Notes under the pieces: generated by a model
Told to the model about the DNA's origin: nothing
What the model saw: the letters and a program-made list of their open reading frames with translations, nothing else
Database searches by the model: none
Translations under genes and position numbers: made by a program
NCBI GenBank assembly: GCA_044070495.1
Contig: JBIPSI010000013.1
Location: 1 to 64,000, forward strand
DNA: 64,000 bases
Reading direction: 5' to 3'
From: Spirulina sp.
Lineage (GTDB): Bacteria > Cyanobacteriota > Cyanobacteriia > Phormidesmidales > Phormidesmidaceae
Shown here: one piece after another, positions 4,028 through 56,585 of the stretch
Layout: each line of letters opens with the position of its first letter
Numbering within the stretch: position 1 is the stretch's first letter

Positions 4028-5338
<1,311 letters not shown>

Positions 5339-6025
5339 AGACACCTCGTTCTAAACCAGCGGTTCAAAGACTGAAGCCAATTAATGTCGCACACCTCGCT
5401 CAAGGAAAAAAGCTCATAGGCAACAGACAGTCACAATGATCTTCAGCACCAGTGGAACAGAACGAGGATAGCGCTACAAAGACAAACCTATTCAGTAGGA
5501 CAGTGAAGCAATTTGGGTTGAGTTGAGCAACAAGGGCGATTGATTAGGTAGCAAGACCAGTCATATGACCTGTGAGGTCGCAGGTCATATGACTGTGGGG
5601 CAAAACATTCCCTGTGGATAACGAACCTGCCTATATCGACGGATCTAGGTCTGGGAGCTTAGTGGTGCAGAAAACTCATGGGAGTCTCAGAATGAGAACG
5701 TAACGACCTGATTGACTGACACATCTCCAAAGTAGGTTGGGGCAGCGAAGCAGAACTCAATACAATTGGTGATCGCGCTGACGCTTTAACAATGGCATAA
5801 GAGGGCGTTTGAAAAGGGATCCCCTGTAGCTTTAGTCACCCGCCGATCCCCCCTAAGTATGTAGTCCCAATCTGTGTCTATAATAGTGTCCTTCCTCAAG
5901 GATATTGTGGATTGTTACGCGGTTTTAATGGGTGTTTTCTTAATAAGTAGATGCCCCTAATTAAACGTTAAAGATTCAGAGGTATTCAATCGTCAGGTGG
6001 CCATCCATCGAGAACGACCAAGTAA

Positions 6026-6712
6026 TTATTCAACCGAACGGGCTGAATAAGAACGGGAGCGCACCCAGTCGAACCATTGGTCTAGCCCCTCTCCGGTTTT
6101 GGCGGAAACCGGAATGATGGTGACTTTGGGGTTCATCTGACGCACGTTGGCGGCAATTTGGTCAATGCTGATCTCTAAGTAGGGGGCGAGATCGACTTTG
6201 GTAATCAACAGGCAGTCCGCCTCTTGAAACATGATGGGATATTTGAGGGGTTTGTCTTCCCCTTCGGTGACGCTGAGTAGGGCGACTTTGGCATGTTCAC
6301 CTACTTCAAATTCGGCGGGGCAAACCAGGTTGCCGACGTTTTCTACCAATACTAAATCAAAGGTGGTGGGGTCGTAGTTGTGGGAGAGGGTGTGGATGCC
6401 CCCAGCCACCATTTTGGCATCCAGGTGGCAGGAACGCCCGGTGTTGATGGCGATGACGGGAACCCCGTACTGGCGCAGGCGGTCGGCATCTAGTTCGGTA
6501 GTCATGTCGCCTTCAATCACGGCCATATTGAGGTCGCTCTGGAGACCCGCTAGGGTACGTTCTAGCAGGGCGGTTTTTCCGGCACCAGGGCTGCTCATGA
6601 TGTTGAAGCAGGTGATGCCCCATTCGTCAAAGTGGGCACGGTTGTGGTCGGCCCCAGACTGGTTAACGTGGAGGAGGTCAATGCCGAGAGCGGCGTCAAA
6701 GGTTTGGTGCAT
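6026..6712 (-). CDS. ghaB: HypB/UreG-like Ni-insertion GTPase (guanidine hydrolase accessory protein)
   Basis: [25 protein letters not shown] and [10 protein letters not shown] motifs; same operon as gdmH. Confidence 0.9.
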
Positions 6713-6788: not shown

Positions 6789-7163
6789 CTATCGGGGAGT
6801 TGTTGGGCTAGCCGCCTCTGCATATTCCACCCGGTCGATTTTAAGTTCTCGGCCAGAGCGGATGTCCTCCATGGGGGCGTGGCAGGTGGGGCAGGCGTAT
6901 TGCAGGCCAATGTCGGGCTGGTATTCCTGCTGGCAGGGATGGCAATAGGCAAGCAGCGGCGTTTCGCGAATCACCAATTCCGCCCCCTCCAAAAAGGTGC
7001 CCTTGGTCTGTACTTCAAAGGCAAATTGCAGACCCACAGGTTCCACGCAGGTAAATTTCCCCACCGTGAGATGTACTTTTTCGATGGCGGGCTGTCCGGG
7101 TTGAGATTCCCACCAATCGCGCACGGTGAGGATGAGCGCCTTAGTCATATCGGTTTCGTGCAT
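6789..7163 (-). CDS. ghaA: HypA-like nickel metallochaperone (guanidine hydrolase accessory protein)
   Basis: MHE N-terminus and two CxxC motifs (CHPC, CPTC). Confidence 0.9.
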   Translation of the reverse strand: MHETDMTKALILTVRDWWESQPGQPAIEKVHLTVGKFTCVEPVGLQFAFEVQTKGTFLEGAELVIRETPLLAYCHPCQQEYQPDIGLQYACPTCHAPMEDIRSGRELKIDRVEYAEAASPTTPR

Positions 7164-7240
7164 CGCAGGGAGCAAAGAAGGGCGGCATTGGGATAGTTAC
7201 GTCACTTTATTGTTATGGTGTAACAAGTTTCGGCAAGAAG

Positions 7241-7507
7241 CTACAGTACTTCTGCGGCGAAAAGTTGCCCCTGAACTCGCTCGTACTCGTCTTCTAAAAG
7301 CCACGCTTTTGCGGCCTCATAACTGGCATGAGTTACAAGTAATTTGTAGTCTGAGCTAGGGCTAAAAATTCTACACGTTCCGTCTTGATCTCCAATTAAC
7401 ATCAAAACCTTGGGTGGAAAAAGTACTGGATCGATCCATAGTTCTAAAAATTCCCAAGTCTCAGCTTGTTCTGCGAGGGCCAGTTCGTGGGATAGCATGG
7501 TACTCAC
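7241..7507 (-). CDS. small acidic hypothetical protein (candidate immunity/antitoxin)
   Basis: 88-aa acidic ORF overlapping the 3' end of the upstream ORF. Confidence 0.6.
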   Translation of the reverse strand: MSTMLSHELALAEQAETWEFLELWIDPVLFPPKVLMLIGDQDGTCRIFSPSSDYKLLVTHASYEAAKAWLLEDEYERVQGQLFAAEVL

Positions 7508-7826
7508 CTGTGGCTTTCACAATTTTAATTTCCCCATAGTAAAGGGGTTTTTGGCTTCCATCTGCGCTTAGTATGTAGCCGATTGCTTCGGAAAAGTAGA
7601 GGCCATATCGCTCATAGTCGTCATCGTCGTCCTTGGCATTTGTCCGTTCTCCGATCTCGATGATAGCGTCGGTAACTCGTTGCAAGGTTTCAAGGCTATT
7701 GAAAACATGTGCTCTACCCTCTTTTTTCAGTAAACGATCAACTTGAGGGGTTCCAGGTAGGTGACGATAGATCAAGCTGAGCCGAGAGTCCGGAATAATT
7801 TCCCTGGAAATTCCACTCATTGACAC
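7461..7826 (-). CDS. hypothetical protein (DUF6972-like; candidate small nuclease toxin)
   Basis: 121 aa with RHLPGTPQ...AHVFN and a C-terminal YHAIPR; family recalled from memory. Confidence 0.6.
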   Translation of the reverse strand: MSMSGISREIIPDSRLSLIYRHLPGTPQVDRLLKKEGRAHVFNSLETLQRVTDAIIEIGERTNAKDDDDDYERYGLYFSEAIGYILSADGSQKPLYYGEIKIVKATGEYHAIPRTGPRRTS

Positions 7827-7886: not shown

Positions 7887-9083
7887 TTACAACCAAGCTT
7901 CATCCACATTCATATTGGCTTCTTCGTGAATGTAGCTGGGTTTTTCGCGGCGGGGCAACTGGCCAGACAGTACCAAGTGGGCCATGGCATCGCAAATCAC
8001 GCGGGTGGCCATTAGGGAGGTCATGTCGCTGATGTCGTAGGGGGGCGAGACTTCCACGATTTCGATGCCGCAGACGGGCACGTTCTGGACAATTTTGCCC
8101 AGCAGATAGAGGGCCTCGCGGGGCAGCAGACCACCCGGTTCTGGCCAGCCGGTGCCGGGGACAAAGCCCGCATCAATGCAATCAATATCAAAGCTAATCC
8201 AGACGCAGTCGGTGCCGTCGGTAGCGCGTTGGATGGCAAAGTCGGCGGCGGCATCTAGGCCCATTTCGGTAATGTCGGTAACGGTGAGGATGTTGGTGGC
8301 CCGTTCGCGGCAAACCTTCACCCCCTGGCGCGGCACCTGCCAACCGCCAATGCCCAGTTGCACCAGGTTTTTGGCCGGGGCGTTGGCCATGTTGGTGGCG
8401 TGGAACCAGGGGCAGGTGTGCATCCGTTCGTCTAGGTCGGTTTCCTGAGTATCGACATGGCGATCAAAGTGGATGATGCCAACTTTTTTGTCGCCCAAGT
8501 GGCGGCAGATACCCCGCACGGTGGGGAAGCCAATGGAGTGGTCGCCGCCGAGGAGAATCGGAAACGCCCCGGAGGCAAACACATGGGCCACGCCCTTGGA
8601 AATTTGGTCGAAGGATTTTTCGTTGTTGGCGGGAATGGTAAAAATATCGCCCACGTCGCAGAGGGTGATTTGTTCGCGCAGGTCAACGCCTAGCTCAAAG
8701 TTGTAGGGCGTGTATAGGGCCGAAATGCGGCGAATGCCCTGGGGGCCAAAGCGGGTGCCGGGGCGATAGGTGGTGCCAGAATCGTGGGGCACGCCAACAA
8801 TGGCCACGTCGTAGTTGCCCACCTTGCGCACGTCCTCTAGGTAGGGCGCTTTCATGAAGGTGTTGATGCCCGCGTAGTGGGGCAGTTCGCCACGGGAGAA
8901 GGTGGGAATGGTGCGATCTCGAATGCTGGCCGCCGCCTCTAGGCCGTACTCCAGCCCTTGGTCAACTTCTTGCTGCCAGCCGGTCAGCGGCAGCCGAGCT
9001 TCCATATTTAAAGCCCGCTGCGCCTCGGATAAATCACCACTAGGGCTTTGAAAAACCGGATCATTCGATGAATCGGTAGTCAT
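7887..9083 (-). CDS. gdmH: Ni-dependent guanidine hydrolase (arginase/agmatinase family)
   Basis: GGDHS, HFDRHVD, MHTCPW and SFDIDCIDAGFVPGTGWPEPGG; closely resembles Synechocystis Sll1077 as recalled; HypA/HypB genes and a guanidine riboswitch are adjacent. Confidence 0.95.
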   Translation of the reverse strand: MTTDSSNDPVFQSPSGDLSEAQRALNMEARLPLTGWQQEVDQGLEYGLEAAASIRDRTIPTFSRGELPHYAGINTFMKAPYLEDVRKVGNYDVAIVGVPHDSGTTYRPGTRFGPQGIRRISALYTPYNFELGVDLREQITLCDVGDIFTIPANNEKSFDQISKGVAHVFASGAFPILLGGDHSIGFPTVRGICRHLGDKKVGIIHFDRHVDTQETDLDERMHTCPWFHATNMANAPAKNLVQLGIGGWQVPRQGVKVCRERATNILTVTDITEMGLDAAADFAIQRATDGTDCVWISFDIDCIDAGFVPGTGWPEPGGLLPREALYLLGKIVQNVPVCGIEIVEVSPPYDISDMTSLMATRVICDAMAHLVLSGQLPRREKPSYIHEEANMNVDEAWL

Positions 9084-9142: not shown

Positions 9143-9200
9143 AAGAAGCCCAGGAAACTAGGACGCTACTTTGCTTAGCTCCCCTAAATCTCCCGGGCTT
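9143..9200 (-). terminator. intrinsic terminator / expression platform of the gdmH riboswitch
   Basis: aptamer 3' end AAGCCCGGGAGA can pair with downstream TTTCCTGGGCTTCTT on the minus strand. Confidence 0.7.
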
Positions 9201-9326
9201 TTTTCCCGCCGTGTAACCAGTACGCAGGCAGGCCCGATCACCTACCCTACGTCCCTAGCCTGCTTCTCTTGGACCAGACATCCGCGTCTTGAGGCGAACC
9301 CAAACCCGAATCGGAACCCTAGAAAC
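9190..9326 (-). ncRNA. guanidine-I (ykkC-yxkD) riboswitch upstream of gdmH
   Basis: minus strand reads TTCTAGGGTTCCG...CTGGTCCAAGAGAA...CACGGCGGGAAAAAAGCCCGGGAGA, matching the conserved ykkC blocks. Confidence 0.93.
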
Positions 9327-9347
9327 ACTAATTTCCTATGCTCCCAG

Positions 9348-9377
9348 ATGATATAAGTCCACTGGGATCTCGGTCAA
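9348..9377 (-). promoter_or_regulatory. sigma70-type promoter for the gdmH riboswitch/operon
   Basis: TTGACC-N18-TATCAT on the minus strand, about 20 nt before the aptamer. Confidence 0.55.
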
Positions 9378-9603
9378 CCTATCATTAATTCCCCGATCAT
9401 CTGGGCATTTGTTAAAATTTCGTGACACAAGAAATCAACTAAAATACCCATTGTTTTAGCTAGGCTTGATGACCCTACGGTTACCGGATGTAGGGCAGGG
9501 CCTAGGATGGCGAGCCGATGGCCGGGGTGGTTTTGTGTCATCAAATTGACGTAAGGATGATGGTCATCTTGATCGCCTACCGTGACAGATTCCCTGGAAT
9601 AAC

Positions 9604-9617
9604 GTATCAAGAAATAC
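9604..9617. promoter_or_regulatory. NtcA-binding site
   Basis: perfect GTA-N8-TAC (GTATCAAGAAATAC) between the two divergent riboswitches; an AACAAT -10-like hexamer lies 23 nt downstream on +. Confidence 0.65.
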
Positions 9618-9755
9618 TTTCTGGGGGTTCCGTGACTGATAACAATAGCCTAACAAGGGCAAAGGCTAATCGTGATTTGGAACTTCAACTCTAGAGTACG
9701 TATTAAAGCTCCACGATTTTGTAAACCGATAGGTCCTTAGATAGGCTAAAAATTT

Positions 9756-9865
9756 GCTTCTAGGGTTCCGATCTAGGGCTTTGGTTCTAGATGCCTGGTC
9801 CAAGAGAAGCCCCCAGCAGACCAGATTGGTCTGTTGGGTTCACGGAGGGATAAAAGCCCGGGAGA
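9756..9865 (+). ncRNA. guanidine-I (ykkC-yxkD) riboswitch upstream of the SSS transporter
   Basis: GCTTCTAGGGTTCCG...CTGGTCCAAGAGAAGC...CACGGAGGGATAAAAGCCCGGGAGA. Confidence 0.93.
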
Positions 9866-9907
9866 GCTGGATTACCCGCAGGTAATCAGTTTTTCTCGGG
9901 CTTTCTT
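9853..9907 (+). terminator. intrinsic terminator / expression platform of the second riboswitch
   Basis: AAAGCCCGGGAGA pairs with TTTCTCGGGCTTT, followed by CTT; internal hairpin CTGGATTACC...GGTAATCAG. Confidence 0.75.
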
Positions 9908-9972
9908 ATATCTAAGAGTCGCCATAGCGGGATTTCTAAACAAGCGTTAACGGATTAACTGGAGATCAAACA

Positions 9973-11487
9973 GTGGAAACAGCACCTATCCACCACGGAA
10001 TTTTATTTTGGGGAATCATTTTATTTCTCCTCAGTACCCTGGGCATTGGGGTTTGGGCCTCAAAACAAATTAAAGGAGATAGCGTTAACTTTTTAGTGGC
10101 AGGTCGGGGGCTGGCTTTACCCCTTGCCGCCGCAACCCTGATGGCCCAGTCGGTAGACGCGAACGCCACCCTGGGCAACACCGACCTATCCGCAGAATTT
10201 GGCTTTTGGGCCGGTGCAGCTTTACCCGTAGGGCTAGCGCTTTGCCTGTTTCTAACGGGCACATTTTTGGCCAAGCCCATGAATCGTATGGGGCTAATCA
10301 CCATTCCAGATTTTTACCGAGTCAAGTATGGCCGTTTGGTTGAAGTGATTGCCGCTTGCATCATGACCGTGAGCTTTTCGTTTTTGCTGGCGGGCAACTT
10401 AGTAGCCGGGGGCTTTATGTTCCAGACGTTCTTAGGCACTAGCTACATGGGGGGGATCACCCTTTTAGCCAGCCTAGTACTGGTCTATACGGTGTCTGGT
10501 GGTCTGTTTGCCGTCGCCTACACCGACTTTATTCAGATGATCATTGCCGCCCTAGGGGCCGGGGCATTGGTCATCTATCTGATGGCCACCTTTGGGTTAG
10601 ATATTCCCGCTGGCACGGGGCCGATGGCTTTAGAACAACTGACCTCTGTGGAGGCTGGAGCGGCGATTAACTGGGCTAGCATCATTGCCCTAGGGTTTGG
10701 CAACATGGTGGCGATTGACTTTATGGCCCGGATTTTTGCCTCAGAAAGTCCTGAAACGGCACAAAAAGCCTGCTACATTGCCTCCGCTGGCACCCTCCTG
10801 ATTGGCATTCCCTTCTCGGTCATTGCGCTATCCGCCGGAAGAATTTTTGACCAAGTGGGTATCACCCCCGATGGCCCAGTCCTGTTTGCAATGTTGCAAA
10901 ACGTCGTCCCCGTTGTGGTCGGGCTGCTGGTACTAGCTGCGATTCTGTCGGCTTCGCTTTCGACGGCTGATGGAGCCATTTTGGGCACCTCTTCTGTCCT
11001 CGCCCACAATGTCTTTGGCATTCGCCACGGGGTCGAGCATGGTCACAGCGGAGACAAGCTCCTATTAATTACCCGTTGGATGGCGGTGGTCATTACTGGC
11101 CTCGGCGTGTTTTTAGGGCTGCGGGTACCCCAGACCGGTGTTTTACTGCTGCTAGCCTTTGACATGAGCTTCGCCGGATTGGTGGTGCCACTGCTGGGTG
11201 GCCTGTTTTGGCCCAAGGCCACCCGCCAAGGGGCTTTGGCCTGTATTGCCGTAGGATCCATTTCGCGCCTACTGATGTTTTCTCTCATGCCCACCATGTT
11301 CGGCGTAGATAACACCCTGTTGTATATCCCGAATAGCCTATTTTCCAGCAGCTTTGACGGCTTCCCGACGATGATCAGCCCCATCTTGGGACTCATCGCC
11401 TTTGTCCTGGTCTCCTACTTCACCTACCAGCCGCCCCAATCCGCGCTCCTAGAGCCCGACCTCGTCACCAGTCGCCAGGTTCTCTAG
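9973..11487 (+). CDS. sodium:solute symporter (SSS) family transporter, candidate guanidine importer
   Basis: about 13 hydrophobic segments; FLVAGRGL, ITIPDFYRVKYG, YTVSGGLFAVAYTDFIQ and AAILSASLSTADG are SSS motifs; GGAG RBS before GTG. Confidence 0.88.
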   Translation: METAPIHHGILFWGIILFLLSTLGIGVWASKQIKGDSVNFLVAGRGLALPLAAATLMAQSVDANATLGNTDLSAEFGFWAGAALPVGLALCLFLTGTFLAKPMNRMGLITIPDFYRVKYGRLVEVIAACIMTVSFSFLLAGNLVAGGFMFQTFLGTSYMGGITLLASLVLVYTVSGGLFAVAYTDFIQMIIAALGAGALVIYLMATFGLDIPAGTGPMALEQLTSVEAGAAINWASIIALGFGNMVAIDFMARIFASESPETAQKACYIASAGTLLIGIPFSVIALSAGRIFDQVGITPDGPVLFAMLQNVVPVVVGLLVLAAILSASLSTADGAILGTSSVLAHNVFGIRHGVEHGHSGDKLLLITRWMAVVITGLGVFLGLRVPQTGVLLLLAFDMSFAGLVVPLLGGLFWPKATRQGALACIAVGSISRLLMFSLMPTMFGVDNTLLYIPNSLFSSSFDGFPTMISPILGLIAFVLVSYFTYQPPQSALLEPDLVTSRQVL

Positions 11488-56511: not shown

Positions 56512-56585
56512 CGGGATGTAGCGCAGCTTGGTAGCGCACTTCGTTCGGGACGAAGGGGCCGTGGGTTCGAATCCCGCCATCCCGA
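56512..56585 (+). tRNA. tRNA-Pro(CGG)
   Basis: CGGGATGTAGCGCAGCTTGGTAGCGCA CTTCG-TTCGGGA-CGAAG...GGTTCGAATCC...CATCCCGA cloverleaf. Confidence 0.97.

Follow-up and report, generated by a model that had tools for sequence, protein, structure and literature searches.

The stretch of DNA analysed here (the window; 64,000 nucleotides, positions 1 to 64,000 of contig JBIPSI010000013.1, assembly GCA_044070495.1) comes from the cyanobacterium Spirulina sp. and contains two divergent genes, each preceded by a guanidine-I riboswitch aptamer. On the minus strand lies gdmH, a gene of the type encoding nickel-dependent guanidine hydrolases of the arginase family (7887–9083), and on the plus strand a gene for a carrier of the sodium:solute symporter (SSS) family (9973–11487). 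The carrier gene starts with GTG, has GGAG 10 nt upstream and encodes 504 aa; the sole Pfam match of its product is PF00474 (SSF; 107.2 bits against a cut-off of 22.8, residues 40–428), as for SLC5-type carriers with the LeuT fold. We consider this product a candidate Na+-coupled guanidine importer, in which guanidine uptake is the likely main function, judging from comparative sequence evidence, and sodium coupling is somewhat less sure than uptake.

The aptamer before the carrier gene (9749–9866, plus strand) matches RF00442 over the entire model (1–107 of 107) with 81.6 bits and an E-value of 5.4e-13 in a cmscan search against Rfam 15, where the gathering score is 63 bits; the same search gave no other Rfam family at threshold at 9749–9866, and the SSS reading frame starts 107 nt past the aptamer. 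An intrinsic terminator on the same strand (9853–9912; hairpin core 9853–9904, then UUUCUUAU) has a 5′ arm (core about 9853–9866) that consists of the P3 loop, the P3 3′ arm and the aptamer tail, and the terminator listing gives an inner hairpin (9870–9887) with a T run after it. The segment 9840–9915 folds with −33.5 kcal/mol (z-score −5.16), a value that none of 200 shuffles reached. As far as predicted folds can tell, the leader at 9749–9912 has the usual design of a transcriptional ON switch, in which the terminator shares the 3′ side of P3 with the aptamer. The palindromic NtcA-type motif GTATCAAGAAATAC (GTA-N8-TAC; 9604–9617) lies further upstream, at a distance of 369 nt from the SSS start and of about 130 nt from the aptamer.

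The second guanidine-I aptamer, which precedes gdmH (9188–9333, minus strand, RF00442 71.9 bits), is an addition to the elements named in the initial annotation of this locus. The gdmH leader, too, can form a hairpin that includes the 3′ portion of its aptamer, although the leader as a whole folds no better than shuffled sequence (z-score −1.78; 11 of 200 shuffles as good). The two aptamers face apart, and RF00442 has no other match in the genome (5.31 Mb, 97% complete). The gdmH product (PF00491, 258.1 bits) has in alignment all three guanidinase signature residues, T105, H222 and W313, which are used for calling guanidinases in the Methods of PMC11410670. The gene is 84–98% identical to cyanobacterial gdmH-type genes in gdmH-ghaA-ghaB(-gimABC) operons. 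It is followed on the same strand by ghaA for a HypA-type nickel chaperone (6789–7175; TIGR00100, 121.2 bits, cut-off 88.1) and ghaB for a HypB-type nickel GTPase (6026–6712; TIGR00073, 310.8 bits, cut-off 121.2), and the signature residues together with these downstream genes identify a gdmH-ghaA-ghaB unit. No ATP-binding cassette (ABC) transporter gene occurs in this operon, the next gene (4028–5344) being of the GTP cyclohydrolase II type. The initial annotation, made from the letters alone, had described a complete ykkC-type aptamer with an overlapping terminator upstream of a 504-aa sodium:solute symporter, its divergence from gdmH and an operon free of ABC genes, and the model matches and folds bear it out on each of these.

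Riboswitch, carrier and gdmH across cyanobacteria

With each prokaryotic species represented by one genome, a scan yielded 71 orthologue loci (68–90% identity), whose records are all titled as cyanobacteria or uncultured bacteria; many of the 71 carrier genomes are incomplete metagenome-assembled genomes. Cultured strains with an orthologue include Acaryochloris marina MBIC11017, where it lies on a plasmid (L049), and Leptolyngbya sp. PCC 7376 (P0094). RF00442 was searched in all 71 genomes and its matches were placed by coordinates, and the Rfam search was repeated on 14 of the 19 loci without an above-cut-off match, the remaining five having no upstream DNA. The aptamer stands at or above the cut-off on the same strand, 69–209 nt upstream of the carrier, at 53 of the 71 loci. 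Another four show an Infernal match below the threshold at this position (L031, L045, L047, L069), and one has an aptamer-like sequence by a custom nhmmer profile only (L039). At five loci the contig ends at the gene, without upstream DNA, at three only the 3′ part of the gene was matched and the start was not located, and at five upstream DNA is present and the aptamer absent (L007, L012, L056, L058, L066). The last of these, L066, lies on a Prochloron didemni scaffold where gdmH-ghaA-ghaB diverges from the carrier as in the window; RF00442 matches are absent from the locus and from the whole genome, so that this genome retains the gene pair but not the switch.

The 71 genomes contain 133 RF00442 matches, with 57 before the carrier, 51 before gdmH (at 51 of its 65 places) and 25 elsewhere. 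According to tblastn, gdmH adjoins the carrier at only four of the 71 loci, which indicates that the switch is attached to the carrier gene itself and not borrowed from gdmH. Four loci (L090–L093) show on one strand a guanidine-I P1 motif, found as a custom pattern match and not as a full Rfam model match, followed by gdmH, ghaA, ghaB and the carrier. The slot that the carrier takes in these operons is that of gimABC (an NMT1_2 binding protein, a permease and an ATPase) in L086–L089. Some of the 25 aptamers elsewhere stand before an operon that encodes a glutamine-synthetase-like protein, a GimA-type binding protein and an ABC permease, seen in L178 and L181 and, by reading-frame sizes, also in L179, L180, L182 and L183. 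The glutamine-synthetase-like product (Gln-synt_C, 453 aa) could represent a further guanidine-handling step under a guanidine switch, and its GimA-type neighbour is 64% identical to the GimA of L086. A glutamine riboswitch (RF01739, glnA RNA), another nitrogen-status element, lies shortly after the end of the carrier gene, on the other strand, in five marine cyanobacterial metagenome contigs (L112, L126, L131, L132, L151).

The NtcA-type motif counts only by its conserved position across loci, since GTA-N8-TAC occurs in the window four times against 4.5 expected and is not significant there alone. It lies 320–490 nt before the carrier start in 37 of the 53 riboswitch–carrier loci; the control, random 700-nt segments of the same loci, gave 49/918 (5.3%). 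In Synechocystis sp. PCC 6803, NtcA controls gdmH and gimABC, and a working guanidine-I switch precedes gdmH (PMC12704784, in the portions available). By analogy, the carrier seems to be under the same two-signal control, by nitrogen shortage and by the presence of guanidine, and such control would suit an assimilatory importer and not a detoxifying exporter. The index of sequencing runs listed no RNA run for this organism, a result that has no bearing on whether the gene is expressed.

An orthologue of gdmH (86–98% identity) was found in 62 of the 71 carrier genomes. We also searched an even sample of 400 cyanobacterial genomes plus the window genome (401 in total), in which the carrier occurs in nine genomes of five families, all matches having at least 64% identity and none falling between E 1e-40 and 1e-208. 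The sample contains gdmH in 54 genomes and a GimA-type binding protein in 68; the GimA query was the gene after ghaB in L086 (Pfam NMT1_2, followed by a permease and an ATPase), and the threshold, E 1e-90 or better with at least 47% identity, was set by us at a gap in the score list. All nine carrier genomes are gdmH-positive, and the carrier is absent from all 347 gdmH-negative genomes. The 54 gdmH-positive genomes divide into 42 with GimA only, seven with the carrier only, two with both and three with neither, so that GimA, the carrier or both accompany gdmH in 51/54. The window genome belongs with the carrier-only group: it gave no GimA match at E 1e-25 or better, a second query reached at best 29% identity (E 1e-10), and the closest relative genome (G012) likewise has the carrier without GimA. 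A GimA-type binding protein (about 52% identity) is also present in 24 gdmH-negative cyanobacterial genomes of the sample, 17/19 in one genus, where its role may lie in a different guanidine pathway or with a different substrate. The association of the symporter with gdmH and with guanidine riboswitches, proposed for a single locus in the initial annotation, is thus a recurrent one among cyanobacteria and, as described below, beyond them.

Distant members of the carrier subfamily

A search of 1.84 billion cluster representatives for relatives of the carrier revealed a discrete subfamily at 31–50% identity, with Q59, D62, N64, L138, N142, A247, D249, F396 and D397 as common residues. In the adjoining clade, whose identity is at most 30%, T-W-x-G is found in transmembrane helix 1 (TM1) together with W138/Q142, as in choline carriers. 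An alignment of 14 distant members was used in one metagenome scan, from which 80 loci with 44–75% identity to the window protein were kept and all searched with Rfam (519 kb). RF00442 is present at 23 of the 80, before the carrier in 16 cases, before an operon running from a gdmH-like gene to the carrier in six, and in an unclear arrangement in one (L121). Ten of these 23 loci, from soil and compost metagenomes (L148, L149, L152, L155, L158, L160, L161, L162, L165, L172), have on the other strand a guanidine-III aptamer (RF01763) before a divergent gdmH-like gene. The gdmH-like genes behind RF01763 have 55–62% identity, and the one that was aligned (L161) keeps T105, H222 and W313; a nitrilase/amidase-family gene follows it at that locus. 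Two unrelated riboswitch classes with one ligand, attached to one gene pair far from cyanobacteria, form the strongest single argument for a guanidine role. For the distant loci, an LmeA-like neighbour gene and the occurrence of guanidine-III switches would make actinobacteria no more than a guess, and no such assignment is made here.

In a FastTree tree, a clade with 17 rows (21 loci by label) is sister to the cyanobacterial carriers, with a Shimodaira–Hasegawa-like support of 97. Because the tree has long branches and an arbitrary root, we draw from it neither a donor nor a direction of transfer. The carriers of this clade have 53–56% identity (L098–L103, L106, L107, L111, L113, L114, L118, L119, L123, L125, L127, L129, L130, L136, L137, L143). 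The clade is probably haloarchaeal, judging from a single haloarchaeal marker gene beside the carrier in L098 (NF041391, score 407.5, cut-off 375). In 12/21 of these loci an arginase-family gene lies near the carrier; it is only 36–37% identical to GdmH, and by its sequence it would possibly be a hydrolase for another guanidino compound.

Several observations weigh against guanidine uptake as the common function. Rfam searches over the sister-clade loci gave no riboswitch, an absence that says little for a haloarchaeal clade because archaea, to our knowledge, are not expected to carry the guanidine-I class. The arginase-family gene of L098 keeps T105, but its residues at the H222 and W313 positions are T and E. 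A guanidine link is absent from the DNA at the loci of a ten-locus soil subclade, and both this subclade and the sister clade keep the same pocket residues, from which it follows either that they carry guanidine too or that the pocket takes a wider range of guanidino compounds. The substrate of the family could, on sequence grounds, be wider than free guanidine or different from it. Among the cyanobacterial loci, five with upstream DNA have no aptamer at all, and guanidine-I riboswitches, as Nelson and colleagues reportedly found in 2017, mostly control exporters. The near-complementary distribution of the carrier and GimA in the even sample rests on nine carrier genomes of five families, which are not independent. 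A GimA orthologue (55–73% identity) is moreover encoded in 53 of the 71 carrier genomes, often right after gdmH-ghaAB, and this coexistence weakens the argument for non-orthologous displacement. Strict complementarity of the carrier and GimABC as a general rule is rejected on this count; with both present in 53/71 genomes, the carrier more commonly adds to GimABC than replaces it. The earlier idea that the SSS protein acts in place of the ABC system thus holds for the window genome, which has no GimA orthologue, and for a minority of other genomes, and fails as a rule.

These observations bear on the alternative that the carrier takes a substituted guanidine (methylguanidine, agmatine or a guanidino acid) or urea, guanidine serving only to co-regulate it. 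Such a substrate would fit the sister clade, where the same pocket residues occur near an agmatinase-like gene that lacks H222 and W313, as well as the soil subclade without a guanidine link; the SSS family also includes the DUR3 urea carriers, to which the structural model of the carrier is weakly matched, and GimABC is already available in most carrier genomes. We nevertheless regard it as unlikely. The switch is of a guanidine class at 53/71 cyanobacterial and 23/80 distant loci, the partner enzymes in the riboswitch-linked clades have the guanidinase signature, the carrier never occurs without gdmH in the even sample, and in four operons it stands in the gimABC position.

Predicted fold and binding sites of the carrier

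The NCBIfam models leave the carrier without a specific name. The superfamily model TIGR00813 scores 111.4, under its cut-off of 184, and readings as PutP (TIGR02121, 102 against a cut-off of 515.5), PanF (TIGR02119, 74.5 against 328) and ActP (20.8 against 1099) were rejected. An AlphaFold2 model built with 35 sequences has a mean predicted local distance difference test score (pLDDT) of 92.1 and a predicted template modelling score (pTM) of 0.91, with helix breaks at residues 61–62 in TM1 and at 247 in TM6. The best Foldseek match is the choline carrier CHT1 (8j74), with a template modelling (TM) score of 0.79–0.80, followed by SGLT2, SiaT and NIS, all of them Na+ symporters; ranks 1–30 are occupied by CHT1, SGLT1/2, SiaT, NIS and vSGLT, with TM scores up to 0.80. 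By sequence, CHT1 (E 7e-21) and vSGLT are likewise the closest solved structures. We therefore mapped the site residues of CHT1, as given in the accessible text of PMC11589582, onto the window protein through a phmmer alignment and the secondary structure of the model.

The mapping indicates that the carrier keeps the Na2 sodium site, which is formed by two hydroxyl side chains of TM8 and by backbone carbonyls of TM1 and TM8: A60, V63, A343, S346 and S347 of CHT1 correspond in the alignment to A58, V61, A327, S330 and T331, and the two hydroxyl positions are conserved across 123 orthologues (S330 in 123/123, T331 in 122/123). At Na3, D188, D349 and S350 of CHT1 correspond to D185, D333 and G334, so that two of the three are kept. 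The incompleteness of Na3, with G334 instead of Ser and with N or S for D333 in other subclades, is a further point to be set against an Na+-coupled importer, and as far as the alignment goes this site does not decide between sodium and proton coupling.

The sodium site also bears on the direction of transport. It is conceivable, though in our view quite improbable, that the carrier exports or equilibrates guanidine for detoxification, in the manner of the riboswitch-controlled Gdx/SugE proteins. Guanidine exporters are widespread without catabolic genes and are not known to be tied to gdmH; the carrier is strictly tied to this assimilatory gene, with no occurrence in 347 gdmH-negative genomes. 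An opposing valve would be compatible with the presence of GimABC in 53/71 carrier genomes, and both the toxicity of guanidine with PrqA efflux in Synechocystis (PMC12704784) and the many guanidine riboswitches that control exporters (PMC12186494), each as described in the available parts of these papers, lend it some plausibility. Characterized SSS/SLC5 proteins are, on the other side, cation-coupled importers, and with Na2 intact an inward sodium gradient would push a cationic substrate inward. The NtcA-type motif of nitrogen starvation upstream in 37/53 loci speaks for assimilation, and export would leave GdmH without a dedicated uptake route in the window genome.

The choline cage of CHT1 has no counterpart in the carrier. 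W62, Y67, Y91, W141, W254 and W406 correspond to S60, A65, L88, L138, A247 and L392, none of the six being aromatic, and the Cl−-binding loop VGGGY of CHT reads VDANA in the window protein; on these two grounds a reading as choline carrier was rejected. D62, N64, N69, D249, R253 and D397 are invariant in 123/123 orthologues and N142 is found in 122/123. D62, which lies exactly at the TM1 break, is specific to the subfamily, as are N64 and N142. The positions of the two helix breaks (61–62 in TM1, 247 in TM6) place D62, N64 and D249 where LeuT-fold carriers bind their substrate. If the model is correct, we infer that a pocket of carboxylates and amides would suit a small, planar, hydrogen-bond-donating cation better than an aromatic cage would.

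A carrier of an unrelated solute such as an osmolyte or an amino acid, linked to guanidine by regulation only and without contact with it, would be suggested by the database names of its entries, which are generic or ‘sodium/proline symporter’, and by the weak, sub-cut-off NCBIfam matches to PutP and PanF. This explanation appears very improbable to us, the more so as every NCBIfam equivalog score is far under its cut-off and the pocket differs from that of a choline carrier at all six cage positions. A guanidine switch or a slot in the gdmH operon is, furthermore, kept in cyanobacteria and in distant soil lineages, with two riboswitch classes involved, which would be difficult to explain for the carrier of an unrelated solute.

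Proposed guanidine supply in the window genome, and known transport systems

Taken as a candidate guanidine importer of the SSS family, the product of 9973–11487 has good support from independent kinds of comparative evidence. The carrier, most likely Na+-coupled, would bring guanidine (as guanidinium) to the neighbouring GdmH, the nickel enzyme that would convert it to urea and ammonium for nitrogen assimilation. The transcript would begin before the aptamer, probably at a promoter that NtcA activates in response to nitrogen shortage. In the absence of guanidine, the P3 loop, the P3 3′ arm and the 3′ tail would pair with downstream sequence to form the terminator and stop transcription before the gene; with guanidine bound, P3 would be held closed, the terminator would not form and the carrier would be made. 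The outcome would be a positive loop like those described for GimABC and for the APC permease of comammox Nitrospira. Within the protein, the Na2 site (S330, T331) would couple uptake to the sodium gradient, and D62, N64, N142, D249 and D397, instead of an aromatic cage, would bind the cation where TM1 and TM6 are broken. In the window genome the carrier would be the only candidate guanidine importer. In most other carrier genomes it would work beside GimABC, plausibly as an ATP-free system of lower affinity or higher capacity. A broader proposition, to which we give an even chance, is that these proteins constitute an unrecognized SSS/SLC5 subfamily devoted to guanidinium uptake in cyanobacteria, in soil bacteria with guanidine-III switches and probably in haloarchaea, in which the D62/N64/N142/D249/D397 pocket replaces the aromatic cage.

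Other genes of the window have a looser relation to this system. Between gdmH and ghaA, a gene with a DUF6972 domain (7461–7826, minus strand; PF22319, 137.6 bits) and an overlapping 88-aa open reading frame without a family match occupy an inserted stretch (7241–7826, minus strand). A tblastn search for the DUF6972 gene found no match at the 71 orthologue loci, and in the closest relative (L014) ghaA follows gdmH directly, with no DUF6972 gene between them; it is not part of the guanidine system elsewhere. The window genome has a second copy, 79% identical, on a different contig (C46:26398–26751), and the insert may be a small mobile or addiction-type module. The GTP cyclohydrolase II-type gene (4028–5344, minus strand; NF005536, 757 bits), which has a GTP_CH_N domain, is co-directional with ghaB and lies about 680 nt downstream of it. 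A tRNA gene is found at 56512–56585 (plus strand; RF00005, 65.1 bits).

Guanidine has only recently been recognized as a natural nitrogen source and riboswitch ligand. The entry routes described in the consulted portions of PMC12704784 and PMC11410670 are the known GimABC and, as a prediction, the comammox APC permease. If the present reading is true, the carrier would be a third kind of guanidine importer, providing an energetically cheaper, sodium-coupled route, and it would explain the guanidine supply of gdmH-positive cyanobacteria without GimABC, such as the one studied here. It would also define a new SLC5 substrate class with a recognizable residue signature, and several hundred entries named ‘sodium:solute symporter’ or ‘sodium/proline symporter’ could be renamed after an assay of one member. 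In application, it would offer a compact, single-gene uptake part for cyanobacterial guanidine-riboswitch tools and guanidine-based nitrogen schemes (PMC12704784, PMC12930504). A full-text literature search, which did not cover older lists of riboswitch gene associations, found no link between an SSS carrier and guanidine, and the consulted text of PMC12704784, PMC11410670 and PMC12186494 does not mention such a carrier. The words ‘symporter’, ‘solute’, ‘SSS’ and ‘PF00474’ are absent from the supplement of PMC12704784 and from 12 of the 15 supplement files of PMC11410670, and a metagenome paper on ykkC links it to ABC and potE genes only.

The closest functional counterpart is GimABC (Sll1080–1082), the ABC guanidine importer of Synechocystis sp. 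PCC 6803, whose binding protein GimA has a dissociation constant of 97 nM for guanidine (PMC12704784, from which the following details are also taken, as far as its available text goes). It shares with the carrier the proposed job, the partners gdmH-ghaA-ghaB and the published control logic. It differs in being a three-component, ATP-driven system with a periplasmic binding protein, compared with a single LeuT-fold secondary carrier, and the two have no sequence relation; GimABC has been characterized experimentally, whereas the SSS carrier is known from genes and a model. Mutants in gimA and gimB, which fail in growth and guanidine depletion at 0.1 mM, still import guanidine at concentrations over 1 mM, so that there must be a further uptake route with low affinity. 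Guanidine becomes toxic to Synechocystis above 5 mM, and PrqA efflux matters in this organism. The carrier would be a candidate example of an ATP-free route like this as yet unassigned millimolar uptake.

In its regulation and energetics the carrier resembles the APC-superfamily permease of comammox Nitrospira, which lies downstream of a guanidine-I riboswitch and is guanidine-induced in metatranscriptomes (PMC11410670; also described in a 2025 review, PMC12186494; both as far as their accessible text extends). Both proteins are riboswitch-controlled, ATP-independent, placed beside a GdmH-type guanidinase and predicted to import guanidine; by description, the comammox permease is set apart by its APC family and presumed proton symport, in contrast to PF00474 and a sodium site. 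Gdx/SugE proteins also provide guanidine-riboswitch-controlled transport of guanidinium, as outlined in the same review, but they export it by proton antiport and have the unrelated four-helix SMR fold.

Within its own superfamily, the carrier is most like CHT1/SLC5A7 and the bacterial CHT, which belong to SLC5/SSS, transport a small organic cation and conserve the Na2 residues (PMC11589582 and bioRxiv 10.1101/2025.09.30.678764, in their available parts). CHT1 is about 20–23% identical to the carrier and differs from it by the aromatic choline cage and the VGGGY loop. The DUR3 urea/H+ symporters (9x5u, 9j7c) are of the same superfamily and take urea, the closest neutral analogue of guanidine, but they are distant structural matches (rank 31 and below, TM scores of 0.62–0.68, 15–16% identity), and among solved structures none of them matched the carrier by sequence at E up to 0.001. 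Set beside these systems, the carrier would represent a different protein family for a known kind of job, the uptake of guanidine.

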